Both the position numbers and the translations under genes were made by a program. Below the pieces are notes generated by a model. That model was not told where the DNA came from. It was given only the letters and a program-made list of their open reading frames with translations, and searched no databases. From a virus (lineage: Duplodnaviria; Heunggongvirae; Uroviricota; Caudoviricetes), in the IMG/VR virus record IMGVR_UViG_2617270968_000008, positions 1-32,403 of that record: a stretch of DNA of 32,403 bases; one strand, given 5' to 3'. Positions 1,659 to 27,044 of this stretch are shown piece by piece. How positions within the stretch are numbered: the first letter of the stretch is position 1; the number at the start of each line of letters is the position of its first letter.

Positions 1659-4130
1659 TTAAGAATCAGCCTGACTCGGGATCAGTTTTTGCCAGATAAC
1701 TGAAACGTATTTTGCCTGGTAACGGGCGTCATCAAGTGCATTATGGCGCTCACCTTCGAATGGAATAGCCGTTCTGGCATCGAAGTCTATGGCTTTCCCC
1801 AGCTCAACGATTGTGCGTACATCGCGATCGTTGTAGTAACGCCACGGGCAGGGGATCCCCTGCCGTTCGTATGAACGGCGCAAAATCGTGTTGTCGAAGT
1901 TGGCTCCATTTCCCCAAACCTGAACAAAAAATTCACCGGAGTTTTCGTCGATAAATTCTCGCAATTGTAACAGTGCATCATCTAACGGGATTTCATCGGT
2001 CATAATGGCAGATTGCGCTTCGCGTGATTGCTTAAGCCACCATTTAATGGTGTCCCGATCAATGACTCCGCCAGCAGTTTCCAGATCGATAGTCTTACTA
2101 AATTCCGGTCCCATATCTCCGGTTTGCGGATCGAAAAATATTGCACCTATTGAGATGATCGGGGCATCAGGATTTTTTCCCATGGTTTCAAGGTCTATCA
2201 TTAGATGGTCACACGTCCTGCTGGTGGATGTGATTACGTGATGACTGTTCACCTTAATTGAGTAATTTGCCGTCTCGCCAGTTTCATTATCGCTATCGTG
2301 ATGCTGATTGCCGCCAGTGTTCTCCTTGTGTGGATGTTCAGCGCCTTCCATTTCCTCCGGATCATCTTCCTGAACTTCAACCTGATACTCTTCATCGAAT
2401 GTTTCCTGGTATGTTGCGTCGCCCATCACCGCGCCACAATCAGGGCAATTGCCGCCGCCGGTCTGACCGCAGGCGGTGCAGACTTTTTCCACTTCCTGTT
2501 GCGCCACTGGTTCAGGCTGTTTCGTTTCTGGCTCGTTTTGTAACGCATTTGGGCTGTTTTGTTCCGCTTTTTGGTAGTTCCGTTCCGATTCATGCTGGTT
2601 CTGGTTTACAGAATCGCGGGTCTGGATCCCCTTAACCCATTTCGGATCATTCGGGTCGCTAATCCCTGCAACAAATTCTCCGCGAGAGGCAGCAAGCAAC
2701 TTATCGGCGTCAGGCTGGCTGATATTGGCTGCCTGCATAATTTTGTTTACTTCGTCAGCGGTAACTTTTATCGGCTCTGGTTGTTCTGAATCTTCAGCGG
2801 TATCTACATTTTGCGGTAAGCCCGTGTATGTGCCATTTTTTCGGGCAAAATATTCTTCTTTTGTGATTTCAGTGGCGCCAGCAGCCAGTGCCTTATCCAG
2901 ACCAGAGAGTTTGTTTGCGCGACCGTATTTTTCTCCGTCCTTATCTGCGAAGAGGAAATAGAACGGCCCCTCACGCTCTACAGATGGTTCGACTTCCACT
3001 TTGCATTCGGTTTTTTCGTTGTCCGGAATTGCCGTTTCCACTGCATCAGTTTCTGGTACTGGCGACGAGAGAGTATCAGTTGCGCTCTGATTTCTTCCTT
3101 CATCTTCAAACACGCCCTTTGTAGTCAGGTATTCAGTAATGTATTTGTTCAGTGCCACAGGGTCTTTGTGAATGTCGATCGGACGTTCACGGACAAGGCC
3201 AAAAATAGTCTGGCGGTCGTAGCGAAGGGCATCAGGCTGTTTGCGCATTGATGCCGAGATACGCTTCCAGTCTTCGCGGTCGTTGTCGATAACTTCATTT
3301 TTTGCCCAGCGATGGATGCTGCCGTCAATGTTTCCGGCATCCACATCACCAGGCCAGAGAGCGTAGGCCAGTTCGTCATCCAGTGTTTTCCATGTCTGCT
3401 TGTATTCGCGATGAATGGCAGCAATGACCAGGCTGATTTTTCCTGTTGAATTTTCAGTGTGCTGTTGATTGACTCTGGCGCGGGCGAGATCAACAACAGA
3501 CGTGTATTTTCCGGTTTCCTTGCGTTCACCTTCGCGACGTTTTTTCCAGATGCGCATCTCTGCCTGAATTTCGGGCCATTTGGCACCAGGCTTACATTTA
3601 TGCTTAACCCACCCGATGGCATGCAGCTTAAGCTCCGGATACATGGCGTTAACATCTGGCATTTTCATCAACGCTTCAACGATATGTCCGTCGAATGTTG
3701 CCATGTCTTCCTGCAACAATTCCTGTGCGCTAATAACCATATCAACGGTGATGTTTTCACATGTGTCGAACTTAACCATGACAGCGTTCTGTACTTCAGG
3801 GGCCAGCTTGTCAAAAGTGACGTTCATCGGATCGGATTCAGTCTCAACCGGGACAAAGGAAGCAGACTCCTCATCCCAGCGGTTTTCCTGCATATATTCA
3901 GCATCCCAGGAATCGAGGGCAGGGCGGGGTATACCGGGTTTATCCTCGCAGACAAGAAATTTATAAGCGCAGTCCTGAGCAGCCGGATAATGTTCCAGGA
4001 ATTGCCAGTGAAATTTTGCGCGGGCGCGACGTTCATCACCGGCTTCAATGGCAGTGGCTACAGCGACGGCACCTTCTTCCTTTATTGCCTGTTCGTCCGG
4101 AATGGCGGCGCAAATAAAGACTTTACTCAT
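1659..4130 (-). CDS. Prophage exonuclease (exodeoxyribonuclease VIII-like) with C-terminal DEDD-type 3'-5' exonuclease domain
   Basis: 823-aa ORF; C-terminal about 180 aa carry DnaQ-like motifs (MIDLETMG ... HNALDDARY); acidic low-complexity middle region with a CxxC...CxxC zinc-ribbon (CTACGQ...CPDCG). Position matches the recombination/exo gene of lambdoid early-left operons. Confidence 0.7.
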   Translation of the reverse strand: MSKVFICAAIPDEQAIKEEGAVAVATAIEAGDERRARAKFHWQFLEHYPAAQDCAYKFLVCEDKPGIPRPALDSWDAEYMQENRWDEESASFVPVETESDPMNVTFDKLAPEVQNAVMVKFDTCENITVDMVISAQELLQEDMATFDGHIVEALMKMPDVNAMYPELKLHAIGWVKHKCKPGAKWPEIQAEMRIWKKRREGERKETGKYTSVVDLARARVNQQHTENSTGKISLVIAAIHREYKQTWKTLDDELAYALWPGDVDAGNIDGSIHRWAKNEVIDNDREDWKRISASMRKQPDALRYDRQTIFGLVRERPIDIHKDPVALNKYITEYLTTKGVFEDEGRNQSATDTLSSPVPETDAVETAIPDNEKTECKVEVEPSVEREGPFYFLFADKDGEKYGRANKLSGLDKALAAGATEITKEEYFARKNGTYTGLPQNVDTAEDSEQPEPIKVTADEVNKIMQAANISQPDADKLLAASRGEFVAGISDPNDPKWVKGIQTRDSVNQNQHESERNYQKAEQNSPNALQNEPETKQPEPVAQQEVEKVCTACGQTGGGNCPDCGAVMGDATYQETFDEEYQVEVQEDDPEEMEGAEHPHKENTGGNQHHDSDNETGETANYSIKVNSHHVITSTSRTCDHLMIDLETMGKNPDAPIISIGAIFFDPQTGDMGPEFSKTIDLETAGGVIDRDTIKWWLKQSREAQSAIMTDEIPLDDALLQLREFIDENSGEFFVQVWGNGANFDNTILRRSYERQGIPCPWRYYNDRDVRTIVELGKAIDFDARTAIPFEGERHNALDDARYQAKYVSVIWQKLIPSQADS

Positions 4131-4222
4131 TTTGTTTTACCTCATTACAGATTTAAGGGTGAACAAATCCCTGCCATTGCTGGCATATAAGAATGAAACC
4201 GGATATTTATTACGGAACTGTT

Positions 4223-4599: not shown

Positions 4600-5161
4600 T
4601 ATCGCGTCCTCAACAATGAATTTTGTGATGCGGTGCCTGGTGCCTCCAGGTGACGTTAACCAGTTAACAATTAACGCCGGATACAGAGAATCCACCCATA
4701 ACACTGTTTTTGGTTTTAACTGTTCCGCGTGCGCTCAGCCGCATTCACCACATCACAAAATTCACTTTAAAAAGGGCGGCAGAGCAGTCACGGAGTAAAA
4801 CTGATACCGCCAAACGTCACCAGAAAATTGATAACAGAGGGCGTTGCAGCGGGGTTGTCACTTAAGCGTATGGTCAACCTGACAACCCGGTGTCCTCAAC
4901 GGGGGAAGGAATACCCCCGCCATACTTACCGCCGCGCCATTTCGCGGATTGCCACAACCGGAAGCGCACGGTCGACGAAAATTTAACGACAGGCTATCTA
5001 TGAACCAGCTACCTCGCCGTGCGCTTTCGCGTTATGGTCTGACTTTTCAGGGAAATATCCTTTCAGTAAACTGTCAGTGCCGGATGCTCACCCGTGTCCG
5101 GCGCACGCACTCCACCTCACCCGTGGAGAACTCCTTAATCACCAACCCTCAGGAGGGTGAA

Positions 5162-5437
5162 ATGTCGACTGAAAATGATGAAATCATTAACTCCCTGATA
5201 CGCCAGATTAATAATTTTGATAAAGCATTGCAACATGCTGCGGCGCGTAGTGATATAACTCTTTTAGCAATTTCATTTCTTGCATCTGTTATGGATAAAA
5301 ATGAAGTCGTACGACAGAGTCTTGTTGATTATATCGACTCGCTTCAACCCGGCACTTTCAATCATGAGAGCTTCAATCATGAGAAAGAGCATGTTAAGTC
5401 TGTAATTAATTCTCTTATTTTGAATCAAAAGAATTAA
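5162..5437 (+). CDS. Hypothetical protein (plus-strand gene embedded in the leftward early region)
   Basis: ATG at 5162 preceded by AGGAGGG (5151-5157); 91 aa; opposite orientation to surrounding early-left genes; preceded by a GC-rich hairpin-dense leader. Confidence 0.4.
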   Translation: MSTENDEIINSLIRQINNFDKALQHAAARSDITLLAISFLASVMDKNEVVRQSLVDYIDSLQPGTFNHESFNHEKEHVKSVINSLILNQKN

Positions 5438-5735
5438 TGCTTTTTGTTGCAAAGTAATTTTCAAGGGGTTCTATTCGAATCCCTTTCTTTTTCATTAACA
5501 AGCCAAACCCCTTATCAATGATGTCCATTAGATCCAGGAAGTATTTTTCATGTAAATCCTGGTTATCAGAGAGCTGCTTCTCTTCGTACAGCCCGATAAA
5601 GGCTCGGCGTACGTTACCGGATATATTGTCGATGGTTTCTTTTTCTACGGTACTCAGGTCAAGAGTCGCCAGTTGAGAGCGAACCACATTCGATGCCATT
5701 TCCTGGAATGGGACTGGTAAATCTTTAAATTCCAT
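5415..5735 (-). CDS. Hypothetical protein
   Basis: ORF 5415-5747; likely start MEFKDLPV at 5735 with GAGG 7 nt upstream; convergent with and overlapping the 3' end of the 5162-5437 gene. Confidence 0.4.
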   Translation of the reverse strand: MEFKDLPVPFQEMASNVVRSQLATLDLSTVEKETIDNISGNVRRAFIGLYEEKQLSDNQDLHEKYFLDLMDIIDKGFGLLMKKKGIRIEPLENYFATKSINSFDSK

Positions 5736-5746
5736 CGTCAACCTCA

Positions 5747-5980
5747 TCAGTCAGTGTTTCTGGTTAACCAGCGACGTGCGCCAGCTTCAGTTTTAAACGT
5801 TTTGCTTCTGGTATATGTCATCGCGGTAAACGTGCCGTCCTGGTTGGGAAACACGCCGCATACCAGAGATTCGTTGTTGCCAAGCTCGATAGTATCCATG
5901 CTGACCTCATTTCCCCTTAACGCCGGGGTAGCGGAACAAAAACCTGCTGCATAGTTATTAAAGTTGAACCCTGCCGTCAT
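5747..5980 (-). CDS. Hypothetical protein, first gene of the leftward early operon
   Basis: 77-aa ORF with GAGG 7 nt upstream; immediately downstream of the inferred PL promoter. Confidence 0.4.
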   Translation of the reverse strand: MTAGFNFNNYAAGFCSATPALRGNEVSMDTIELGNNESLVCGVFPNQDGTFTAMTYTRSKTFKTEAGARRWLTRNTD

Positions 5981-6080
5981 GTTCTTACGCCTCGGGCTGG
6001 CTACTTAACCCCTGACCACTGCCTGGTAACTCGAGGTATTGCCCTGTATTGTGTGGGACGGGATGGGTTGGTATGGGAAA

Positions 6081-6124
6081 ACTATAGGAAATGCCTAATT
6101 ACTTGTCAATAGGCTATGCCTAAT
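6081..6124 (-). promoter_or_regulatory. Leftward early promoter (PL-like) with embedded operator repeat
   Basis: On the minus strand: -35 TTGACA (6103-6108), 17-nt spacer, -10 TATAGT (6081-6086). The spacer holds TTAGGC/GCCTAA half-sites; 6103-6124 is the exact reverse complement of 6747-6768. Confidence 0.6.
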
Positions 6125-6217
6125 AATTTGGGCGCAACCTAATAGGTGATGGTTTGTGGGAGAGGTAGTAGGAGTTAACTAACGGGAACTAGGAATTTCC
6201 CGTCGGACCATATAAGT

Positions 6218-6694
6218 TTAAGTTCCTGTCTTGGTGATGTTCTGGCTTTTCCGTTTTGATTCTTGATTTTTCAGATAGTTAGCTACCTTCATTTCCATTG
6301 CGGCAATGTAGGCGCGAACGTCATGATCAACCCAACTAGGCTCCGTAGCATTTCCAGATAAGATGAAAGCCACAATTGCTCTTTTTTCATCAGAGGCGGC
6401 TTGATAAAGGCTGTTTATGTCTAAAAGTTCACTTTTTGTATCTGAAGTGGATGGGGTTGGTATTGGGTATTCGTTAAGCCCCCAATGCTCTGGACCAACC
6501 ACATCAGAAAAGAAACGCCATAGTTCTGGAAGTTTGTCTTTACTTATCGAACCTTTCTTAATCCAGTCATGGATTGATGGTGGTTGGACTTTGAAATGAC
6601 GTGCGATTTCCGCCTTTGATTTGACGGCTCCTGATGCAATTTTTTTGTTAATGGCCTGCTCTATCGCTCGGCCTAAGTCTTTACCACTAAGCAT
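6218..6694 (-). CDS. racR: Prophage repressor, RacR-like (HTH DNA-binding)
   Basis: 158-aa ORF with AGGAGA RBS, flanked by operator-bearing divergent promoters; followed divergently by two genes of about 107 and 141 aa, matching the racR/ydaS/ydaT layout. Symbol is from size and arrangement, not a search. Confidence 0.6.
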   Translation of the reverse strand: MLSGKDLGRAIEQAINKKIASGAVKSKAEIARHFKVQPPSIHDWIKKGSISKDKLPELWRFFSDVVGPEHWGLNEYPIPTPSTSDTKSELLDINSLYQAASDEKRAIVAFILSGNATEPSWVDHDVRAYIAAMEMKVANYLKNQESKRKSQNITKTGT

Positions 6695-6746
6695 TGCTTA
6701 ATAGTCTCCTATGCGCATCGCGTTAGGCAATCCCTACTCTCGATGT

Positions 6747-6791
6747 ATTAGGCATAGCCTATTGACAATTTCATTAGGCTAAGCCTAATAT
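6747..6791 (+). promoter_or_regulatory. Rightward early promoter (PR-like) and operators
   Basis: -35 TTGACA (6762-6767), -10 TAATAT (6786-6791); perfect palindrome ATTAGGCT-A-AGCCTAAT (6773-6789) overlaps spacer and -10; 6747-6768 is the inverted copy of the PL-side 22-mer. Confidence 0.6.
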
Positions 6792-6818
6792 TGTTGCGTG
6801 TTTTTTGGAGTTCATTCG

Positions 6819-7142
6819 ATGAAAAAAGATAACTATTCATTCAAACGAGCTTGTGCTGTTGTCGGTGGGCAATCAGCAATGGCTAGGCTTTTAGGTGTAT
6901 CTCCTCCAAGCGTAAATCAATGGATCAAAGGTGTACGTCAGTTACCTGCTGAGAGATGTCCTGCGATTGAACGAGCAACAAAAGGTGGTGTCCTGTGTGA
7001 AGAACTTCGTCCTGATGTTGATTGGACATACTTACGACGCTCGTCATGTTATTCGCAGAATATGTCGATGAAGCAACCAAATGACGAAAACGATCATACC
7101 CGAAGCATCAAGAGGCAAATGATTCATGAAAATCAAACATGA
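6819..7142 (+). CDS. ydaS: Cro/YdaS-like HTH regulator
   Basis: ATG at 6819 after a GGAG RBS; N-terminal HTH-like segment (QSAMARLLGVSPPSVNQWIKG); first gene of the rightward operon, divergent from the repressor. Confidence 0.55.
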   Translation: MKKDNYSFKRACAVVGGQSAMARLLGVSPPSVNQWIKGVRQLPAERCPAIERATKGGVLCEELRPDVDWTYLRRSSCYSQNMSMKQPNDENDHTRSIKRQMIHENQT

Positions 7143-7551
7143 GCACATCCGCATGGCGATGAATGCCTGGGCATACCCTGATGGTGAGAAAGTTCCTGCA
7201 GCTGAAATAGCCCGGACTTATTTCGAACTGGGGATGACGTTCCCTGAACTGTACGACGACAGCCATCCGGAAGCCCTAGCCCGTAATACCCAGAAAATTT
7301 TCCGTTGGCTGGATAAAGACACCCCTGATGCTGTTGAAAAAATGCAGGCTCTGTTACCGGCGATCGAAAAGGCGATGCCGCCTTTGCTGGTGGCCCGTAT
7401 GCGCAGCCACAGTTCTGAATATTACCGTGAGATCGTCGAACGGAGGGATCGGCTGGTGAAGGATGTCGATGATTTTGTTGCGTCAGCGGTTGTTTTGTAT
7501 GACCAGATGAATCGCGGCGGCCCGGCAGGGAATGCTGTGGTGATGCACTAA
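7126..7551 (+). CDS. ydaT: YdaT-like protein (toxin-like partner of YdaS)
   Basis: 141-aa ORF overlapping the ydaS-like 3' end; size and position match ydaT of Rac-type immunity regions. Confidence 0.5.
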   Translation: MKIKHEHIRMAMNAWAYPDGEKVPAAEIARTYFELGMTFPELYDDSHPEALARNTQKIFRWLDKDTPDAVEKMQALLPAIEKAMPPLLVARMRSHSSEYYREIVERRDRLVKDVDDFVASAVVLYDQMNRGGPAGNAVVMH

Positions 7552-7573
7552 AAGCACGGTGTTCGGGGGTTTT

Positions 7574-8536
7574 ATGAGCAGCAAGCTTCATGGTCTTGTC
7601 TGGGAAGGGTGCGCCTTCACCGGCATGATCTTATCCAGGGTGGCGGTTATGGCCCGTCTTGCAGACTACAGCAATGACGAGGGCGTGTCATGGCCTGCCA
7701 TTGAAACTATCCGGCGTCAGATCGGTGCAAGAAGTGAATCCACAGTGAAATCGGCTATTGCAGAACTGGCGAAAGAGGGCTGGCTGACGAAGGAAGAGCG
7801 TAAGGTCGGTGGGCGTAATGTAAGCAATATCTATCGGCTTAATGTGGAAAAACTCGAAGCAGCTGCGGCGGCGGCGCGTGAGTCATATAAACCGAAAAGA
7901 AAAATTAGCCCGGCAAAAAATGACCCGTTAACAGTTGACCCGTCAAATATTGACCCCTCAACGGTTGACCCGTCAAATTTTGATGGATCAACTGTTGATA
8001 AAAAACTGCCGATTAGGGGGGCGATGATTGACCCCGATCCGTCAGTATTAAAACCTGATCCGTCAGATAAAAGATCTTCTTGTCCGGACGCTTCGCAACC
8101 GGACCCGCAGACGGCTGAACAGGATTTTTTAACCCGACACCCTGACGCGGTTGTGTTCAGTGCGAAAAAACGCCAGTGGGGAAGTCAGGAAGATTTGGTG
8201 TGCGCACAGTGGATCTGGGGACGAATCGTGAGTCTTTACGAGCAGGCGGCCAGCGATGATGGCGAGATCACTAGACCGAAAGAACCCAACTGGACAGCAT
8301 GGGCCAATGACGTTCGCACAATGCGGATGCTGGATGGCAGAACTCACAGACAAATTTGTGAAATGTTTGGGCGTCTCCAGCGGGATTCGTTCTGGGTAAA
8401 AAACATCATGAGTCCGGCAAAACTCCGGGAAAAATGGGATGAACTGGTTATCCGCCTGGGGCGTTCGCCTGCGCAGCGTTGCGTGAATCACATTTCTGAA
8501 CCGGACACTGAAATTCCGCCGGGCTTCAGGGGGTAA
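7574..8536 (+). CDS. Replication initiation protein (O-like / YdaU-like) with internal iterons
   Basis: N-terminal winged-helix-like region (GVSWPAIETIRRQIGARSESTVKSAIAELAKEGWL); central 5-aa repeat DP(S/L)(T/N)(V/I)D encoded by the tandem DNA repeats; first big gene of the rightward operon. Alternative GTG start at 7559. Confidence 0.65.
   Translation: MSSKLHGLVWEGCAFTGMILSRVAVMARLADYSNDEGVSWPAIETIRRQIGARSESTVKSAIAELAKEGWLTKEERKVGGRNVSNIYRLNVEKLEAAAAAARESYKPKRKISPAKNDPLTVDPSNIDPSTVDPSNFDGSTVDKKLPIRGAMIDPDPSVLKPDPSDKRSSCPDASQPDPQTAEQDFLTRHPDAVVFSAKKRQWGSQEDLVCAQWIWGRIVSLYEQAASDDGEITRPKEPNWTAWANDVRTMRMLDGRTHRQICEMFGRLQRDSFWVKNIMSPAKLREKWDELVIRLGRSPAQRCVNHISEPDTEIPPGFRG
7921..8070. repeat. Iteron array (candidate replication origin) inside the initiator gene
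   Basis: Six tandem 15-bp units from 7921 (tgacccgttaacagt / tgacccgtcaaatat / tgacccctcaacggt / tgacccgtcaaattt / tgatggatcaactgt / tgataaaaaactgcc), with further TGAYCCGTCAG-like copies at about 8028-8070. Confidence 0.65.
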
Positions 8537-8576
8537 GTGTTAATTTCTGGTCATGAGGTAATTTTCAGGAGGGCTT

Positions 8577-8999
8577 GTGGCAAAAGTTTTTACACAAGAA
8601 GAGCGGGAAAAAATTAAAGGGCAGGTTGTTGAACTCGTACGCCAGAGTGGGCGCGAGACGTTACGACAACTGGAAACTAAAACTGGGGCAACAAGATATC
8701 TGATGAGCGTTCTGGCCAGAGAGCTGGTTGCCAGTGGCGATGTATACAACTCTGGTTACGGGTTATTCCCGTCTGAACAGGCGCGTAAGGACTGGCAAAA
8801 TGCCCGTAAAAAGCTCTCAAGGGCAAAGCTGAAGAAACCATCTGCGGTTGATCCGGACCTTATCTGGTCATTACCTGACGGAGAAATACGTCGCTACGAC
8901 AGGCGTCAGAACATAATCTGTCGCGAGTGCCGGAAGAGCGAAGTTATGCAGCGCATATTGTCGTTTTATCAGGGTAATTTTCAGAAGGTGCTGTTGTGA
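8577..8999 (+). CDS. Hypothetical protein downstream of the replication initiator (not DnaC/P-like)
   Basis: 140-aa ORF with GTG start after AGGAGGG; basic protein with a CRECRKS motif; occupies the helicase-loader position but is too small and lacks Walker motifs. Confidence 0.45.
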   Translation: MAKVFTQEEREKIKGQVVELVRQSGRETLRQLETKTGATRYLMSVLARELVASGDVYNSGYGLFPSEQARKDWQNARKKLSRAKLKKPSAVDPDLIWSLPDGEIRRYDRRQNIICRECRKSEVMQRILSFYQGNFQKVLL

Positions 9000-9104
9000 G
9001 CCAAATTAACAATCGGAACTTCGTGAAGAGAAAGCATAATCCAAATCTGAATAATTAAGTTTAGCACTGTAAATAAAATTTAATCCTTAACTGGAGGTAT
9101 ATCT

Positions 9105-9317
9105 ATGTCAAATACACAGAAAATTATTAACACTGAAAAATATAACGAGTGGGTGAAAAAATTCTCTGAACAGATTTTTAAAATTACTGGCGACGAGAAT
9201 GTGGCAAAAAATGAATTAGAACCGTGGACACCTGAAGGAAACGCACCAAATTATTGCTGGTGGGAAGTTGATCCGGTTGATGCTGCAAATGAAGCCATGA
9301 GTTACCACAACGATTAA
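9105..9317 (+). CDS. Hypothetical small protein
   Basis: 70-aa ORF preceded by CTGGAGG; nin-like region. Confidence 0.4.
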   Translation: MSNTQKIINTEKYNEWVKKFSEQIFKITGDENVAKNELEPWTPEGNAPNYCWWEVDPVDAANEAMSYHND

Positions 9318-9349
9318 TGTCGGGAGGCCGCCCGAAAGGGCGGTAAGAA

Positions 9350-9568
9350 ATGACTACATTATTCAGAAAAGAATATCCGCAAAAAAGTAGAGCGACAGAA
9401 TTTTTGTTTCTCATTCTGTTTATCGTATTGATGATACCGATATCCCCTCTAATTTTTGTCTGGGCAATCGGGAAAATAATTGAGCCAGTTACTGAATTGT
9501 ATACCGACGTTGTATGGGCGTCGTTCAACACACTGCACAATAAAATTAATCCGTATAAGGAAAACTGA
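9350..9568 (+). CDS. Small membrane protein (hypothetical)
   Basis: 72-aa ORF with a clear hydrophobic transmembrane segment (EFLFLILFIVLMIPISPLIFVWAIG). Confidence 0.4.
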   Translation: MTTLFRKEYPQKSRATEFLFLILFIVLMIPISPLIFVWAIGKIIEPVTELYTDVVWASFNTLHNKINPYKEN

Positions 9569-9569
9569 T

Positions 9570-9833
9570 ATGGCAACTTTGACAAAAAAAGAACGGGCAT
9601 GGTTGAACGAATTACAGGAAGTTCTTGATCGCTGTCCATCACCGAAAAAAATTGGCTTTTACACCATTGGCGATAAAAGCATTTACCTGTATGACCTACG
9701 CCGCATGGATGAAATCATGGAGGCTCTTGATAATCGTTCGTCGATGGATTGGTGTGTTGCTGTTCATGATATGAATGCAGGGTTTGATGAAAAGATTTTG
9801 TTCCCCTCATCAGTTGAAAGCACTGCGGGTTAA
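9570..9833 (+). CDS. Hypothetical protein
   Basis: ATG at 9570 after AAGGAAA, 2 nt after the previous stop; 87 aa. Confidence 0.4.
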   Translation: MATLTKKERAWLNELQEVLDRCPSPKKIGFYTIGDKSIYLYDLRRMDEIMEALDNRSSMDWCVAVHDMNAGFDEKILFPSSVESTAG

Positions 9834-9842
9834 GGAGTAACA

Positions 9843-10010
9843 CATGACCACTATTACCAAAGAACGTATTGAATTGTTCATTAAAAACCCGCTTGAAAAC
9901 GGGCTTACCCGTGGTGAACAAATGGAACTGGCACGGATTGCGCTGGCATCGCTGGAAGCAGAGCCGGTTGTGTTCTGGTTTGAAAAATATCAAGAAGGGG
10001 CTACGGCATG
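9843..10010 (+). CDS. Hypothetical small protein (paralogue of the next gene)
   Basis: 55-aa ORF (below the ORF-track cutoff) read directly from the sequence; shares motif [10 protein letters not shown] with the next ORF ([10 protein letters not shown]); its stop overlaps the next start (ATGA). Confidence 0.35.
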
Positions 10011-10352
10011 ACGACTTTTACCAGAGAGCAGTTAATAGCTCACGCAGAGGAGACTATTGAAGCACAGAGACTGTGCATACCGGGCACAATCGACCATGAC
10101 ATCATCCGCACATATAAGATGGATATTGCTGTTCTGGAAATCGCACTGGTATCGCTGGCAGCAGAGCCAGCCGGTAAATTGCATGAATACAAACCAGTGG
10201 GATATCAGCGTCTGGTCGATGAGTTAACCATGCTGGTAAAGCAGTTAACCTGGCAACTGAGGAAAGCGAAGCCAGACTGCAAATTACCGGATAAGGCGAT
10301 GAGTTATCTGGAGCGGAACGGACTGATAAGCGTGGAGGATATTTTACGATGA
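10008..10352 (+). CDS. Hypothetical protein
   Basis: 114-aa ORF translationally coupled to the preceding paralogous ORF. Confidence 0.4.
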
Positions 10353-10432
10353 CCTGGCCTGAAGCATTAACAACGGTAGGAATTGCGATGGCGGTGGCGC
10401 TGGTGGTGTATTCGATTTGCCGCTGGGGATAA
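10349..10432 (+). CDS. Possible 27-aa hydrophobic peptide
   Basis: ATGA-coupled to the upstream gene; encodes [27 protein letters not shown], a single transmembrane helix; too short to call firmly. Confidence 0.2.
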
Positions 10433-10643
10433 AAACGGTTTGCGGGAAAAGGAGAGTTAAGTAGAATTGCAGCGGGTGCTTGAGGCTATCTGTCTCAGGC
10501 ATGAACACCAAAAGGCAGATAGAGAAAAGCCCCAGTTAACATTACGCGTCCGGCAAGACGCTTAACATTAATCTGAGGCCATATCTATGCTCTACACACG
10601 TAGGTTAGCCTCTTACGTGCCGAAAGGCAAGGAGAAGCAGGCT

Positions 10644-10799
10644 ATGAAGCAGCAAAAGGCGATGCTAATCGCCCTGATCGTCATCTGTTTAACCGTCATT
10701 GTGACGGCACTGGTAACGAGGAAAGACCTCTGCGAGGTACGAATCCGAACCGGCCAGACGGAGGTCGCTGTCTTCACAGCTTACGAACCTGAGGAGTAA
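10644..10799 (+). CDS. hokD: Hok/Gef family type I toxin (HokD/RelF-like)
   Basis: 51-aa product MKQQKAMLIALIVICLTVIVTALVTRKDLCEVRIRTGQTEVAVFTAYEPEE has the Hok/Gef signature (transmembrane helix, TRKxLCE, conserved C-terminal half). An in-frame upstream ATG at 10587 with its own GAGG gives a 70-aa Mok-like extended frame. Confidence 0.8.
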   Translation: MKQQKAMLIALIVICLTVIVTALVTRKDLCEVRIRTGQTEVAVFTAYEPEE

Positions 10800-10867
10800 G
10801 AGACCTGGCGGGGGAGAAATCCCTCGCCACCTCTGATGTGTCAGGCATCCTCAACGCACCCGCACTT

Positions 10868-10896
10868 AACCCGCTTCGGCGGGTTTTGTTCTTTTT
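10868..10896 (+). terminator. Rho-independent terminator downstream of hok
   Basis: Stem AACCCGC / loop TTCG / GCGGGTT followed by TTGTTCTTTTT; the same hairpin recurs at 12216-12243. Confidence 0.7.
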
Positions 10897-11043
10897 GTGA
10901 AAAAAATTCCCTTAAAGGAGATTTTTTTAACTAAAAAGGTTTACTTTGCTTTCGTATATGGTAAATTTTAGGAATTAGAATTTAAGCGCCCATCAGGCTT
11001 GCGTTAGGCAAGTCTGCTAAATCAACAAATTGAGGATAAAATC

Positions 11044-11403
11044 ATGGCACTCACTGAATTCGGTAAGGCCGTTAGAAAAGCGAGGATCGATACTGACAGT
11101 ACTCTTCTGACTATGTCTCAAGAACTGGGCACTACGCCAGCGTTTCTTAGCGGTTTAGAAACTGGTAGCAAAAAAATACCTCTGAAGTGGGTTAAGAAGA
11201 TTGATTCTTACTTCAAGGCCAAAGGTGTAGAAATTGAAGGGTTACAGGAGCTAGCGGCAGTTGCGAATGACTCAGTTCCAGTAAACGGTTTGTCTCAGCA
11301 ACAGAAAATGCTTGTAGCGGGATTCGCTAAGTCGCAGTTTACGCCGGAACAGCTAAAGAGTTTTGCAGATTTATTGCAAAAGATTAATAACAATGAGGGG
11401 TAA
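11044..11403 (+). CDS. XRE-family HTH transcriptional regulator
   Basis: 119-aa ORF with GAGGA RBS; N-terminal HTH-like segment; 2 nt upstream of the ImmA-like peptidase gene. Confidence 0.65.
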   Translation: MALTEFGKAVRKARIDTDSTLLTMSQELGTTPAFLSGLETGSKKIPLKWVKKIDSYFKAKGVEIEGLQELAAVANDSVPVNGLSQQQKMLVAGFAKSQFTPEQLKSFADLLQKINNNEG

Positions 11404-11405
11404 TT

Positions 11406-11882
11406 ATGTATCAAATGAGAGGTAACAGGGTGTCACCGATGCAAGAAGAAGAAATAGCCTACAGAGCTATAAACTTCTGTAATGCTATTGGTCTTACAGC
11501 CTCAAAGCGCAAAAGAAAGCGTTATGATATGTTCTTTGAAAGCCTGTCAATTTATGGGGTTACTCTTGACGTCAGGACCGACAAAGAGTGGGAGGCTCTG
11601 ACGTATGATCTAACTATCGGACATTGTGACCCCGCTTCTCTAACAATTACGGTTCCCAATAAAATATATGTGAATGCTTGCCTTGGGGAAGAGCATGCAC
11701 TTGCTGTTATCTTCCACGAGCTAGGTCATTTGCTTCTTGGACACAAAGCAGTTTTACACTTTTCAGTTAAAGAACCTACTCGTATTGAGGATGCAGAATG
11801 GCAGGCAGATACATTTGCGGATATCGTACTGGAAACAATTGGCGTGAGAACACAACAGATGTCGTTCGATTTTTATATGTAA
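11406..11882 (+). CDS. ImmA/IrrE-family zinc metallopeptidase
   Basis: 158-aa ORF with HExxH motif (VIFHELGHLLLGH) and downstream acidic residues; the classic partner of an XRE regulator. Confidence 0.65.
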   Translation: MYQMRGNRVSPMQEEEIAYRAINFCNAIGLTASKRKRKRYDMFFESLSIYGVTLDVRTDKEWEALTYDLTIGHCDPASLTITVPNKIYVNACLGEEHALAVIFHELGHLLLGHKAVLHFSVKEPTRIEDAEWQADTFADIVLETIGVRTQQMSFDFYM

Positions 11883-12049
11883 AAGCCCTGCGCTAACAGG
11901 GCTTTTAGGGACGGAAAGTGCGCTAACACATTCCGTAGTGTATGGAGATAATCCAATCACAACACTTTTTGTAGACAAGCGAAGTGTAGTGGTTCTCCCA
12001 ACAAAGTGCAACCTGTGTGGATTCACAGGTGAGCAGGGAAAACGAAATC

Positions 12050-12199
12050 ATGGCAATGGGTACCTGTCGCAAATGTGGCTGTCCATGTGAGATCATTTTT
12101 CGCTACTCTGTGTGTGTAGATGGTGTAATGCGCCACGCGAAAAAAGGGAAGCCTTTCCCGATCCCACTTTGCAGTTGTAGTGGCAAGCACGCAGCTTGA
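12050..12199 (+). CDS. Small Cys-rich protein (zinc-ribbon-like), hypothetical
   Basis: 49-aa ORF from MAMGTCRKCGCPCE with 8 Cys in CxxC-like spacing; AGGGA RBS; lies inside the terminator-bracketed cassette with XRE and ImmA. Confidence 0.35.
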   Translation: MAMGTCRKCGCPCEIIFRYSVCVDGVMRHAKKGKPFPIPLCSCSGKHAA

Positions 12200-12215
12200 T
12201 ATTCAGTACTGACAA

Positions 12216-12243
12216 AACCCGCTTCGGCGGGTTTTGTTTTTTC
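12216..12243 (+). terminator. Rho-independent terminator (second copy)
   Basis: Identical hairpin AACCCGCTTCGGCGGGTT followed by TTGTTTTTTCTT; direct repeat of the 10868-10896 terminator. Confidence 0.7.
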
Positions 12244-12314
12244 TTGGCATTCAGGTTTACAATTCGCACGTCAGCCTGAACAACTGGCACCTGCTGCGCC
12301 AGCAGAGAAAGACG

Positions 12315-12593
12315 ATGGCGCACAATACCAAATCACACAATTCTGATAATTCAGCTGTCTTTGCCAGCAGGCACGGGCGGCGTTCCCGCACATTCAAATC
12401 TGATTGGTACCAGCATCCCCCATGTACTGAAGAACAAGCTGAATGGCTAATTCAGTGCTACCGCAGACACGGATACGAGATAAAGAAAGCCCTCAGCCTC
12501 GATTATCGTCACTGGATAATCTCCGTCAGGCTTCCTTACTCTGAACGCCCACCGCGTCCGTCCCGCACATTCCAGCAACGCATCTGGAGGTAA
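12315..12593 (+). CDS. Hypothetical protein
   Basis: 92-aa ORF from MAHNTKSH; immediately precedes the DUF968 gene. Confidence 0.4.
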   Translation: MAHNTKSHNSDNSAVFASRHGRRSRTFKSDWYQHPPCTEEQAEWLIQCYRRHGYEIKKALSLDYRHWIISVRLPYSERPPRPSRTFQQRIWR

Positions 12594-12594
12594 C

Positions 12595-13641
12595 GTGCGG
12601 GTATTACTTCGACCTGTTCTGGTACCGGAACTCGGGCTGGTGATCGTTAAGCCGGGCCGTGAATCCATGCCGGTATTCCACAATACCCGGGTACTGGTGG
12701 AGCCGGAACCGAAAAGCATGCGTAATCTGTCGTCCGGGGTCGTTCCTGCCGTTCGCCAGCCGCTGGCGGAGGATAAATCATTACTGCCATTTTTCAGCGA
12801 CGAACGAGTGATTCGTGCTGCTGGTGGCGCTGGCGCATTGTCTGACTGGTTACTGCGCCATGTTAAATCCTGCCAGTGGCCACACGGCGATTATCACCAC
12901 AGTGAAACCGTCATTCACCGTTATGGTACCGGCGCAATGGTGTTGTGCTGGCACTGCGACAACCAGCTGCGCGACCAGACCTCCGAATCACTCGGGCAAC
13001 TTGCTCACCAAAACCTGTCTGCATGGATGATTGACGTCATACGCCATGCAATGAATGGCTCGCAGGAACGGGAATTATCGCTGGCTGAATTATCCTGGTG
13101 GGCGGTCCGCAATCAGGTGGCGGACGCGCTACCGGAAGCGGTATTACGTCGTTCGCTGGGGTTGCGTGCGGAAAAAATCCGCTCAATGTACCGTGAAAGC
13201 GACATCGTACCGGGAGAGCAGACCGCCACCAGCATACTGAAGCAGCGCACAAAAAATCTTGCGCCGCTGCCTCACGCCCACCAGCAAAACCCGCCACAGG
13301 AAGAGACGGTGGTCAGCATTGCCGTTGATCCTGAGTCTCCGGAATCTTTCATGAAACGACCTAAACGTCGCCGCTGGGTTAACGAGAAATACACACGCTG
13401 GGTGAAGACACAGCCGTGTGCGTGTTGTGGTAAGCCAGCCGACGATCCCCATCACCTGATTGGTCATGGTCAGGGCGGAATGGGGACAAAATCTCACGAT
13501 ATTTTCACGCTACCGCTGTGTCGGGAGCATCACAACGAGCTTCATGCGGATCCTCTGGCGTTCGAAGAAAAGCATGGTTCTCAGGTTGATTTAATTTTTC
13601 GTTTTCTTGATCACGCCTTTGCAACTGGCGTGCTTGGGTAA
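12595..13641 (+). CDS. DUF968-family prophage protein (YdfU-like) with HNH-like Cys/His motif
   Basis: 348-aa ORF with GTG start after GGAGG; C-terminal CACCGKP...DPHHL...CREHHNELH cluster resembles an HNH/zinc-finger nuclease motif; lies upstream of rusA and Q as in Qin-type prophages. Confidence 0.6.
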   Translation: MRVLLRPVLVPELGLVIVKPGRESMPVFHNTRVLVEPEPKSMRNLSSGVVPAVRQPLAEDKSLLPFFSDERVIRAAGGAGALSDWLLRHVKSCQWPHGDYHHSETVIHRYGTGAMVLCWHCDNQLRDQTSESLGQLAHQNLSAWMIDVIRHAMNGSQERELSLAELSWWAVRNQVADALPEAVLRRSLGLRAEKIRSMYRESDIVPGEQTATSILKQRTKNLAPLPHAHQQNPPQEETVVSIAVDPESPESFMKRPKRRRWVNEKYTRWVKTQPCACCGKPADDPHHLIGHGQGGMGTKSHDIFTLPLCREHHNELHADPLAFEEKHGSQVDLIFRFLDHAFATGVLG

Positions 13642-15420: not shown

Positions 15421-16470
15421 ATGCTTAATACTGTAAAAATATCCAGTTGTGAGTTAATCAACGCCGACTGCCTGGAATTTATCCGGTCGTTACCCGAAAA
15501 TTCTGTTGACCTGATAGTCACGGACCCGCCGTACTTTAAAGTGAAGCCTGAGGGCTGGGATAACCAGTGGAAGGGCGACGATGATTACCTGAAGTGGCTG
15601 GACCAGTGTCTGGCGCAGTTCTGGCGGGTGCTGAAACCTGCCGGAAGTCTTTACCTGTTCTGTGGTCATCGCCTGGCATCTGATATCGAAATCATGATGC
15701 GTGAACGCTTCAGTGTGCTGAACCATATTATCTGGGCGAAGCCGTCCGGACGCTGGAACGGATGCAACAAGGAAAGCCTGCGGGCGTATTTCCCCGCCAT
15801 AGAGCGCATTCTGTTCGCGGAACATTATCAGGGGCCGTATCGTCCGAAAGATGCCGGGTATGCGGCGAAGGGCAGTGCACTGAAACAGCATGTGATGGCC
15901 CCGCTGATTTCTTACTTTCGTGATGCGCGCGCGGCCCTGGGGATAACGGCAAAACAGATTGCAGATGCCACAGGAAAGAAAAACATGGTGTCGCACTGGT
16001 TCAGTGCCAGTCAGTGGCAGCTACCGAACGAAAGCGATTATCTGAAATTACAGTCGCTGTTTGCCCGGGTGGCAGAAGAGAAACATCAGCGCGGTGAACT
16101 GGAAAAGCCCCACCACCAGCTGGTGGATACGTATACGTCACTGAACCGGCAGTATGTGGAGCTGCAGAGTGAATATAAGCATCTGCGGCGGTATTTTGGT
16201 GTGACGGCGCAGGTGCCGTACACGGATGTGTGGACACATAAACCGGTGCAGTTCTATCCCGGGAAACATCCGTGCGAAAAACCGGCAGAAATGCTGCAGC
16301 AGATAATCAGCGCAAGCAGTCGTCCGGGTGACCTGGTTGCAGATTTTTTTATGGGCTCAGGTTCAACGGTAAAAGCGGCACTGGCGCTCGGGCGTCGTGC
16401 GATTGGCGTTGAGCTGGAGACCGGACGTTTTGAGCAGACAGTCAGGGAAGTTCAGGATTTAATCGTTTGA
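15421..16470 (+). CDS. Orphan DNA methyltransferase (N6-adenine/N4-cytosine, beta class)
   Basis: 349-aa ORF with catalytic DPPY motif (IVTDPPYF) near the N-terminus and SAM-binding FxGxG motif (DFFMGSGST) near the C-terminus; no adjacent restriction endonuclease gene. Confidence 0.8.
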   Translation: MLNTVKISSCELINADCLEFIRSLPENSVDLIVTDPPYFKVKPEGWDNQWKGDDDYLKWLDQCLAQFWRVLKPAGSLYLFCGHRLASDIEIMMRERFSVLNHIIWAKPSGRWNGCNKESLRAYFPAIERILFAEHYQGPYRPKDAGYAAKGSALKQHVMAPLISYFRDARAALGITAKQIADATGKKNMVSHWFSASQWQLPNESDYLKLQSLFARVAEEKHQRGELEKPHHQLVDTYTSLNRQYVELQSEYKHLRRYFGVTAQVPYTDVWTHKPVQFYPGKHPCEKPAEMLQQIISASSRPGDLVADFFMGSGSTVKAALALGRRAIGVELETGRFEQTVREVQDLIV

Positions 16471-25589: not shown

Positions 25590-25965
25590 ATTCAGCCGTT
25601 CCGTGCTGTATCATGGCCGTTGCCAGTGATGATGGCACCAGAACACGCATACCCCGTAACGCCAGCTCAACGGGACGACCTGTCTCCGGGCAATACCCCA
25701 TTACTTGCAGGCACTTCCGTACCCGGACGGCTTTAACATCATCCGGAGCATCCGTGTTGTTCAACTGCTCACCATCGTCTGTGTGATTTTGATCAGCCCC
25801 ACTCTCATCAGAGTGCATAATGCCCTCCGGGGAAACAGCAAGCTCCTCTTCCCACTCAGACACACGTTGCGCAATATCCGCAGCACTCCCCGACATATCC
25901 GCCTCGCGCCCCAGCAGGCCAGCCAGTTGACGAAGACGATTCAGATTTTCTTCTTTTGTTGCCAT
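25582..25965 (-). CDS. DNA packaging protein FI-like
   Basis: 127 aa from MATKEENLNRLRQ with AGGAGG RBS; acidic protein in the lambda FI position directly upstream of FII on the same strand. Confidence 0.6.
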   Translation of the reverse strand: MATKEENLNRLRQLAGLLGREADMSGSAADIAQRVSEWEEELAVSPEGIMHSDESGADQNHTDDGEQLNNTDAPDDVKAVRVRKCLQVMGYCPETGRPVELALRGMRVLVPSSLATAMIQHGTAEYA

Positions 25966-26016
25966 CTCAGCCTCCTGTGAAAAAAGACACGGGGGCATTT
26001 CGCCCCCGCTCACGGA

Positions 26017-26202
26017 TTATTTCACCTGCACCACCACAAACTCATCCGGATCCGGCAGCACCATCAGCGGTGCGGACTGCGTCATGGTGAATTCACGGGC
26101 CGGATCGCCCACAGTCAGCCAGTGTTTCGGATAACGGGAAGATCTCCCTGTGATTAAGCTGGGGATCAGAATGCTGGGGCGTCGTCCGAACAGCATACTC
26201 AA
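26017..26202 (-). pseudogene. Major capsid protein E, C-terminal remnant (inverted)
   Basis: Short frame ending just upstream of FI on the minus strand (….PLMVLPDPDEFVVVQVK); the upstream part of the frame reads across the junction with the Z C-terminal fragment. Assignment by position and weak recall. Confidence 0.35.
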
Positions 26203-26482
26203 AGCCGGTCAGCATCGTTATCAGCGGGCATTTATCCAGCGATTAAATAATGGGCGCTGGCATGTTATGCAACGTCTTCCCCAGGCCAGATATGAGGAGG
26301 GCAATGACGACAAGGGAAGGAAAAAGCGTAATCGCCTTCCCATTCAGGTGGTGAAAATCCCGATGGCGGCCCCACTGAAACAGGCATTTGATGAGAATGT
26401 TGACCGTATCCGGCGTGAACGCCTGCCTAAAGAACTGGCATACGCGCTGAAACAACAACTGAGGATTGCGATAAAACGATGA
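26138..26482 (+). pseudogene. Tail completion protein Z, C-terminal fragment
   Basis: Frame opens after a stop at 26132-26134; (E)DLPVIKLG...FIQRLNNGRWHVMQR...VVKIPMAAPLKQAF...[25 protein letters not shown] matches the lambda gpZ C-terminal half; the N-terminal half is on the opposite strand. Confidence 0.75.
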
Positions 26483-26874
26483 AAAACACTGACATTCGTG
26501 CCGCAGTGCTGGATGCACTCGAGCAGCATGAACACGGGGCGACGCTGTTTGATGGTCGCCCCGTTGTTTTTGACGAAGAGGATTTTCCTGCGATCGCGGT
26601 TTATCTGACGGATGCAGAGTATACCGGTGAAGAGCTGGATGCAGATACCTGGCGGGCCACGCTGCATATTGAGGTGTTTTTACCGGCACAGGTACCGGAT
26701 TCAGAGCTTGATCAGTGGATGGAAAGCCGGATTTACCCGGCGATGACCGCGATCCCGGCACTGGCAGGACTGATTACCACGATGGTTACGCAGGGCTATG
26801 AGTATCGTCGTGATGACGATATGGCGTTATGGAGTTCTGCAGATCTGACTTATTCCATTACATACGAGATGTGA
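26479..26874 (+). CDS. Tail terminator protein U
   Basis: 131-aa product closely resembles recalled lambda gpU ([10 protein letters not shown]...[14 protein letters not shown]...[19 protein letters not shown]...[17 protein letters not shown]...[12 protein letters not shown]). Confidence 0.85.
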
Positions 26875-26881
26875 GGACGAT

Positions 26882-27044
26882 ATGGCAACACCAAATCCCC
26901 TTGAGCCGGTAAAAGGTGCCGGTACCACTCTGTGGGTTTACAACGGCAAGGGTGATGCTTATGCAAACCCGTTGTCAGACGATGACTGGCAGCGACTGGC
27001 TAAGGTGATGGCGCGCCGTTCCGCTACAGCTTCAGCGCCCTGAA
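26882..27044 (+). pseudogene. Major tail protein V, N-terminal fragment
   Basis: [42 protein letters not shown] matches the lambda gpV N-terminus for about 42 aa, then diverges and stops; ORF below the track cutoff, read from sequence. Confidence 0.7.

Follow-up and report, generated by a model that had tools for sequence, protein, structure and literature searches.

A lambda O-type replication initiator with internal iterons and a DnaT-like C-terminal tail in a prophage lacking a helicase-loader gene

The initiators of the plasmids RK2 (TrfA), R6K (pi) and pSC101 (RepA) are winged-helix proteins that act on direct repeats and, encoding no loader themselves, draw on the DnaB or DnaB-DnaC of the host. 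In phage lambda, the origin lies inside the gene of the initiator O, and the P gene follows it. We analyzed a 32,403-nt stretch of viral DNA (IMG/VR record IMGVR_UViG_2617270968_000008) from a lambda-like E. coli prophage, referred to in full as the window, and focused on its replication initiator gene at positions 7574 to 8536. The encoded protein consists of a winged helix, a disordered linker encoded by iterons, a C-terminal domain of the lambda O type and a disordered 20-residue tail of the DnaT type. As a replicon, the locus falls within the normal range of the lambda O/ori family, which settles the annotation of the initiator. On balance, it is probably a working O-type replicon with its origin inside the initiator gene, in which the tail would bring in host DnaC-DnaB. 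The initiator and its parts are as follows.

7574-8536, plus strand: replication initiator gene, 320 amino acids (aa), assigned to the lambda O family through its C-terminal domain.
7574-7885, plus strand: N-terminal winged-helix DNA-binding domain, aa 1-104 (AlphaFold2 and Pfam), the presumed iteron reader.
8111-8464, plus strand: helical C-terminal domain, aa 180-297, homologous to the C-terminal domain of lambda O.
8471-8533, plus strand: tail QRCVNHISEPDTEIPPGFRG at the C-terminus, aa 301-320, copied from that of DnaT (matches to DnaT in PDB and NCBIfam).

The start at 7574 is the one given by the Prokaryotic Genome Annotation Pipeline (PGAP) in an E. coli chromosome 99.9% identical to the window, and clustering places the protein among 3163 near-identical members. 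It is covered at full length by PHROG 391 'replication initiation O-like' (E = 2e-115); present database labels are 'helix-turn-helix domain-containing protein' and the misleading 'primosomal protein I'. From 54 homologues, AlphaFold2 gave a model with a winged helix (aa 1-104), a disordered segment (110-179), a helical region (180-297) and a disordered tail (298-320). Pfam detected only an HTH_36 winged helix at aa 25-71, with no match to Phage_rep_O (PF04492) at E <= 0.1, and fold searches with the N-terminal domain recovered only generic winged-helix proteins. The C-terminal domain was more informative: BLASTP aligned aa 182-300 with aa 171-277 of lambda O (39% identity, E = 5e-26). This domain is also matched by PHROGs 277, 391 and 9773, is near-invariant across homologues and was modeled with a predicted local distance difference test score of 75-90. 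Judged by its sequence, it is a true homologue of the C-terminal domain of lambda O.

The earlier note on this DNA, made from the letters alone, had recognized the lambda O/ori arrangement, and our comparison agrees with it. As in lambda, the putative origin lies within the initiator gene, and dyad-symmetric iterons encode the inter-domain linker at a matching offset (nt 348-437 of the gene, against nt 349-435 of O for the annotated lambda iterons). The two systems differ in that the N-terminal domain is an HTH_36-type winged helix and not Phage_rep_O, the units are 15 bp long at 15-bp spacing whereas those of lambda are about 19 bp at 20-24 bp, a DnaT-like tail stands in place of ...TDWIYGVDL, and a DUF977 gene, not P, comes next. 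The repeats within the gene form three groups.

7921-7980, no strand: four strong 15-bp iterons with the dyad core TTGAC-CC-GTCAA; homologues have arrays of the same period at the same place.
7981-8010, no strand: fifth unit, whose core TTGATGGATCAA is inverted and reads TTGATCCATCAA on the minus strand, followed by a sixth that is vestigial.
8029-8078, no strand: two distal iteron-like copies of GATCCGTCAG, at 8036 and, 21 bp further on, at 8057, with an A-rich run after each and three GATC.

Tandem Repeats Finder reported a period-15/30 array at 7909-7998 (score 96-101). Read in register, the 15-bp units begin at 7921 (TGACCCGTTAACAGT), 7936 (TGACCCGTCAAATAT), 7951 (TGACCCCTCAACGGT) and 7966 (TGACCCGTCAAATTT). 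These four share the core TGACCC(G/C)T(C/T)AA, which with the preceding T forms the dyad TTGAC-CC-GTCAA, and the consensus of the strong iterons is TTGACCCGTCAA. In the unit at 7981 (TGATGGATCAACTGT) the core is inverted, and that at 7996 (TGATAAAAAACTGCC) retains TGA alone. The tandem units reported previously at 7921-8010 were thus exact in their coordinates, but the count of six iterons held only for 15-bp units, as four are strong, one is inverted and one is vestigial. In the whole window, TTGACCCGTCAA at no more than two mismatches occurred only at 7920, 7935, 7950, 7965 and 7980, at an exact spacing of 15 bp; first-order Markov simulation, run 300 times, placed at most two sites within 80 bp. 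The further copies that had been placed up to about 8070 correspond to two exact occurrences of GATCCGTCAG at 8036-8045 and 8057-8066, a count reached in 0 of 100 shuffles.

The distal region at 8029-8078, with a GC content of 0.45-0.47, is a candidate for extra initiator sites or for the unwinding region. Its GATCCGTCA pair is also found in the homologues of SfIV, Edwardsiella and Morganella, and is maintained across genera despite coding for a predicted disordered protein segment. The three GATC (Dam) sites lie within 40 bp at 8036-8076, two of them inside the conserved GATCCGTCA repeats, and occupy the same place in loci L002, L089 and L090; they may reflect methylation- or SeqA-linked control of the origin. 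Two DnaA boxes with one mismatch near the origin were no more than expected by chance, and DnaA was not retained as a participant. In this the locus differs from the iteron plasmids, where DnaA boxes are usual, and no sequence relationship to TrfA, pi or RepA was detectable.

The array is in frame and encodes NDPLT-VDPSN-IDPST-VDPSN-FDGST-VDKKL (aa 116-146), which bears out the DPS/T-V/I-D peptide repeat described before. The 15-bp repeats could accordingly have been selected as a DPS-rich linker peptide and not as binding sites for the initiator, and DPS-like motifs do recur among homologues. We consider this highly improbable. The encoded region falls within the predicted disordered linker, the array occupies the position of the lambda iterons, and each unit is a DNA palindrome. 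Arrays with 15-bp period were found at the same place in the homologues of SfIV, PhiR49_1, Salmonella, Edwardsiella, Morganella and Pantoea (cores CTGACCCGTCAA, TTGACCCCTCAA, TTGAGGGGTCAA and CTGACGCGTCAG); the units of the window, SfIV, Salmonella, Edwardsiella, Morganella and Pantoea are of the (T/C)TGAC..GTCA type. Both orientations of the unit occur among homologues, and inversion keeps the DNA motif but changes the peptide from DPS to EGS or DGS, indicating that the constraint acts on the DNA.

The repeats also change together with the N-terminal domain. mEp460_ev081 has an almost identical C-terminal domain and tail but a different N-terminal domain, and carries unrelated repeats with a period of 23 bp; in Tritos, the N-terminal domain is of a third type and the repeats are GTCACG. 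Thus, the iteron type tracks the DNA-binding domain while the C-terminal domain stays constant, as in classical lambdoid O/ori pairs. Close homologues of 88-92% identity (P0002, P0005, P0015 and P0016) differ in length by multiples of 5 aa (320, 315, 310 and 305 aa), with the gaps inside the array, so that iteron copy number differs among otherwise near-identical prophages. From these sequence comparisons, the repeats at 7921-8010 are most probably DNA sites and not a peptide repeat.

The last 20-21 residues of the initiator match those of E. coli DnaT, with identity at 14 of 20 positions, and they form the extreme C-terminus in both proteins. The tail, predicted to be disordered in the AlphaFold2 model, fits the DnaT motif [KR]RD[VIL]Nx[VIL]SEPDxxIPPGFRG and matches the DnaT chains 2ru8, 6aep and 9zbt in PDB. 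The NCBIfam DnaT model (NF002770) scored 16.8 bits against a cut-off of 201, with a match only at profile positions 159-179; the N-terminal domain, acidic linker and three-helix C-terminal domain of full-length DnaT were not found in the initiator, in which the tail alone matches. This match explains the label 'primosomal protein I' on related phage genes. The window protein further differs from DnaT in that it is predicted to recognize an origin sequence rather than being recruited by PriA and PriB.

In 79 genomes of Enterobacteriaceae, the group covered by our host scan (at least 73% identity), the DnaT tail is conserved as [KR]RD[VIL]Nx[VIL]SEPDx[QH]IP[PR]GFRG. A degenerate DNA scan of IMG/VR for IPPGFRG followed by a stop codon found the tail on at least 10 initiator architectures, some of which also carry a DnaT-like three-helix domain. 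Searches of the literature for the tail motif 'PPGFRG' and for modules consisting of an initiator without a phage loader returned nothing useful, and papers on the 'Eru' modules of Shiga toxin (Stx) phages do not describe a module of the window type.

The type of tail was then compared with the type of loader encoded next to it. When viral contigs were scanned with lambda P or the initiator alignment, the matches were near-identical copies; more diverse ones came from queries with IPPGFRG-stop, a DnaC-like protein and a divergent P-like protein. Of the open reading frames (ORFs) that precede 74 phage dnaC-like genes (78-100% identity to the query loader), 73 have [RK]D[VPL]Nx[IV]SxPDxxIPxGFRG at their end, joined to at least four different C-terminal domains, and the one exception looks frameshifted. 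The DnaT-like tail was found upstream of none of 72 lambda P genes, a phylogenetically narrow sample in which all are at least 97% identical, and upstream of none of 15 divergent P-like genes. All 87 of these ORFs, including one with a non-O C-terminal domain, have a tail of the TDW or WN..GW type; lambda O itself ends in ...LDLTNTDWIYGVDL. Conversely, no P-like gene came next in 57 loci selected by the tail; roughly half had a dnaC-like gene, and the rest mostly had DUF977 directly.

Homologues from Salmonella, Edwardsiella and Morganella, which share the window protein's C-terminal domain, end in ...EWNTPEGWRDVL or ...NTDWIDGIENDL and are followed by a Phage_lambda_P gene. The host itself has the same order as the phages with a DnaC-like loader: dnaC starts 2 nt after the dnaT stop codon in 71 of the 79 genomes, so that a gene ending in the tail is followed by dnaC both in the host and in most relatives of the window prophage. 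Host DnaC and the phage DnaC-like protein are 48-56% identical. YdaU of Rac-SA53 has a DnaT-like C-terminal domain (54% identity, E = 2e-22) but a TDW-type tail and a P-like partner (hhalign probability 98%), and thus the tail, not the domain, tracks the loader.

A clear copy of DnaT's three-helix C-terminal domain, fused to DUF1376 or other N-terminal domains and in some cases joined by the DnaT tail, was also observed in phage initiators at L005:1164-2234 (Rac-SA53 ydaU) and in the IMG/VR loci L176, L210, L220, L229, L236 and L244. Phages have dismantled DnaT and put its pieces to use separately.

Downstream of the initiator, the window has a short junction and a gene for a small protein.

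8540-8567, no strand: cassette junction, at which relatives carry a 1545-bp cassette with a dnaC-like gene and a gene for a 256-aa protein (blastn against contig L209).
8577-8999, plus strand: DUF977/LygF gene (Pfam PF06163) in the 'ren' position, encoding a 140-aa winged-helix protein.

No loader was found in the window by tblastn with lambda P, Salmonella P-like and phage DnaC-like queries, and a Pfam scan of 10 ORFs, out of 14 in the window that reach 200 aa, detected no DnaB, DnaC/IstB or P domain. Of the other four, that at 3459-4190 was regarded as spurious, being antisense to the exonuclease gene and inside it, and the names of three were taken from PGAP in the 99.9% identical genome; among ORFs below 200 aa, the Pfam scan covered positions 5000-13000. 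These results are in line with the earlier statement that no P, DnaC or DnaB homologue is visible.

We considered whether the 140-aa protein is itself a small helicase loader of a new kind, standing in for P or DnaC, as its gene comes directly after the initiator, it is basic, and its small size is shared by some known loaders. Its match to PF06163 is full length (109.7 bits, gathering score 22.1), its PHROG label is Ren-like, and AlphaFold2 gave a generic winged-helix fold, from a shallow alignment and with low confidence at aa 87-140; all sequences returned by the homologue search were at least 89% identical. No Pfam or NCBIfam loader family matched the protein, no DnaC-like or P-like tblastn match was found at 8577-8999, and no Walker A motif (G....GK[ST]) was found in homologues on related contigs, although this pattern would miss the GKN form of DnaC. 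The fold and the tblastn result, more than the Walker scan, indicate that the protein is not a loader. DUF977 also follows modules that already hold a DnaC-like loader, such as that of the Shigella phage 75/02 Stx and those of many viral contigs, as well as the loader-less modules of Tritos and mEp460, and it is absent from the loader-less module of SfIV. A role as loader is therefore most improbable; DUF977 is an accessory gene, and the previous description of a 140-aa basic protein, with no recognizable helicase loader downstream of the initiator, was upheld. A literature search on DUF977 returned nothing useful.

Comparison with related contigs located the difference at the junction. By blastn, the window is 99.6% identical to the viral contig L209 up to position 8539; L209 then has an additional 1545 bp, encoding a 248-aa DnaC homologue and the 256-aa protein, where the window has about 27 bp, and the alignment resumes at 95.4% identity in DUF977. 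In IMG/VR, 78 loci had the window initiator with enough downstream sequence: 55 carry the cassette, 20 have the junction of the window and three have another arrangement. Some of the contigs with the cassette-less junction are 47-58 kb long, and about 421 of 5426 complete E. coli genomes gave a contiguous match over the initiator and DUF977.

The state without the cassette could mean that the module is crippled, that is, that loss of the cassette left an initiator and origin unable to load helicase efficiently, as a decaying remnant in a defective prophage. The relatives with a 99.6% identical initiator hold the cassette, as do 55 of the 75 classifiable loci, and most head and tail genes of the window have been lost. 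The region at 24261-29292 contains an ORF of the size of a terminase small subunit (24261-24809), unrelated ORFs and a gene for the tail-tip protein J (27067-29292) that is without its N-terminal part, as Phage-tail_3 matched only from profile position 72. With its structural genes largely missing, the prophage is defective for morphogenesis. The early region is intact. In addition, the exact initiator of the window is present in no isolated phage.

Against a crippled module, the initiator ORF, iterons and tail are intact and 99-100% identical across many contigs, and the same junction recurs in the viral contigs and genomes counted above. The complete genome of mEp460_ev081 (60 coding sequences) has the same C-terminal domain, tail, junction and DUF977 and no loader anywhere, and Tritos has the same loader-less layout with another initiator. 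In SfIV, the initiator is 62% identical and the iterons are similar, none of the 54 genes encodes a loader, and the phage was propagated from single plaques. We therefore regard a crippled module as unlikely, although it is the most serious of the alternatives considered here. The cassette-less state occurs commonly as a natural variant and does not reflect simple decay, although the window initiator is usually accompanied by a dnaC-like gene. The choice posed previously, between an initiator that recruits host DnaB/DnaC and an incomplete module, is thus not a clean either/or, as the window does lack a cassette present in 55 of 75 loci; decay of the prophage, which the earlier note had connected with an incomplete module, does not account for the loss.

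Taken together with the lambda paradigm, these comparisons suggest the following mechanism. Dimers of the N-terminal domain would bind the dyad-symmetric 15-bp iterons, and the resulting nucleoprotein complex would open nearby DNA. Comparative genomics suggests that the helicase may be brought in through the extreme C-terminal tail, the type of which matches the type of loader: a DnaT-like tail (...SxPDxxIPxGFRG) would serve DnaC-type loaders, and a lambda-like tail (TDW or WNxxxGW) would serve P-type loaders. Without the phage dnaC-like cassette, the window prophage would use host DnaB6-DnaC6 directly.

More tentatively, and with somewhat less than even confidence, we propose that the DnaT tail is a docking peptide for DnaC or DnaB6-DnaC6, which enterobacterial phages have repeatedly grafted onto unrelated origin-binding proteins. 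The C-termini would then form a short 'loader code', in which the DnaT type designates host or phage DnaC-type loaders and the TDW/WNxxxGW type designates lambda P-type loaders, and the window prophage would be a natural example of an O-type initiator that works with no loader other than the host's. According to papers from 2024 and 2026, how the PriA-PriB-DnaT preprimosome hands over to DnaB-DnaC is unknown, and an interaction between DnaT and DnaC has never been shown.

The tail may instead dock on PriA, PriB or DnaB itself, with the origin fired through a PriA-type primosome. A cryo-electron microscopy structure places the DnaT C-terminal domain on PriA through a conserved hydrophobic interface, removal of DnaT residues 154-179 weakens cooperative binding to single-stranded DNA, and, as just noted, direct contact of DnaT with DnaC is undemonstrated. 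However, the near-perfect association of the tail with dnaC-like genes and its exclusion from P-type modules are hard to explain in this way, because PriA is present in every host and equally accessible to P-type phages. We regard this alternative as improbable, and DnaC or DnaB6-DnaC6 remains our preferred partner of the tail.

Several points weigh against the proposal that the tail recruits host DnaC-DnaB to a working origin. The loader-containing form is in the majority for the window initiator (55 against 20), and the exact N-terminal domain is in no isolated phage, the best match in the phage collection being 57-60% identical. An AT-rich unwinding element is not clearly visible; over 60 bp around 7880-8100, GC content falls to 0.38-0.47 at the lowest, with short A-runs only. 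The narrow sampling of lambda P limits the contrast between tail types, and the 2026 preprimosome paper tentatively favors, as a suggestion only, the DnaT N-terminal domain as the recruiter of DnaB/DnaC. Finally, 6 nt separate the dnaC-like gene from the codons of the tail, and the association could partly be physical linkage within one captured module. Pure hitch-hiking of the tail is opposed by its conservation at the protein level across divergent lineages, its retention in viable phages without a loader and its separation from the DnaT C-terminal domain in YdaU. The retention, conservation and separability of the tail do not prove a protein contact.

The tail, on which the earlier note did not remark, is the most promising clue to the mechanism, and its association with the loader is the part of this analysis worth following up. 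Its wider value is a sharp and cheap hypothesis, namely that the DnaT tail is an adaptor on the DnaC side, for the testing of which the phage data provide natural tail-swap and loader-loss variants. The same reading explains the lack of a loader gene in many lambdoid prophages and phages, and the tail type offers a simple sequence rule to predict the host factors that a phage replicon needs.

Among known modules, the window also resembles those with an initiator and no phage loader in SfIV, SfII, mEp460_ev081, PhiR49_1 and Tritos, with which it shares the C-terminal domain family or at least the tail. mEp460 and Tritos also have DUF977 next, and SfIV has 15-bp iterons of the CTGACCCGTCAA type. 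They differ from the window in overall initiator identity (56-62%), in the variant tail VDYSQIPAGFRG of SfIV and in the N-terminal domains and iterons of mEp460 and Tritos described above.

A comparison with ydaU/ydaV of Rac, called for by the earlier note, showed that Rac has a different module. Rac-SA53 shares with the window a control region of the RacR/YdaS/YdaT type, the combination of an origin-binding domain with a piece of DnaT, and DUF977 downstream. In contrast to the window protein, YdaU consists of DUF1376 and a DnaT C-terminal-like domain (54% over 82 aa) with a TDW-type tail, and is followed by a P-like protein. The Rac-SA53 'ydaV' (L005:2227-2688, 153 aa), annotated 'putative replication protein', corresponds to the C-terminal half of lambda P (hhalign probability 98%, E = 3e-13) and not to DnaC.

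The control region of the window lies directly upstream of the initiator gene.

6218-7551: immunity/early control region, with racR at 6218-6694 (minus strand), a ydaS/cro-like gene at 6798-7142 and a ydaT/cII-like gene at 7126-7551 (Pfam YdaS_toxin and YdaT_toxin, PHROGs 35 and 163, PGAP names).

This region probably drives rightward transcription into the initiator gene.

Other genes of the window were noted in passing. An ORF for a type I toxin of the Hok family (...MLIALIVICLTVIVTALVTRKDLCEVRIRTGQTEVAVF...) at 10587-10799 is named hokD in the 99.9% identical genome. At 11044-11882, a helix-turn-helix protein of 119 aa adjoins a 158-aa protein with an HExxH motif (HELGHLLLGH), and the pair looks, from its sequence, like an antirepressor protease pair of the ImmA/IrrE type. 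A gene for a 349-aa N6/N4 DNA methylase is located at 15421-16470 in the nin/Q region. A convergent pair at 22227-23856, between the lysis genes and the terminase, carries, in the near-identical genome, the labels 'sce7726 family' and 'beta family', and is possibly moron or defence cargo.

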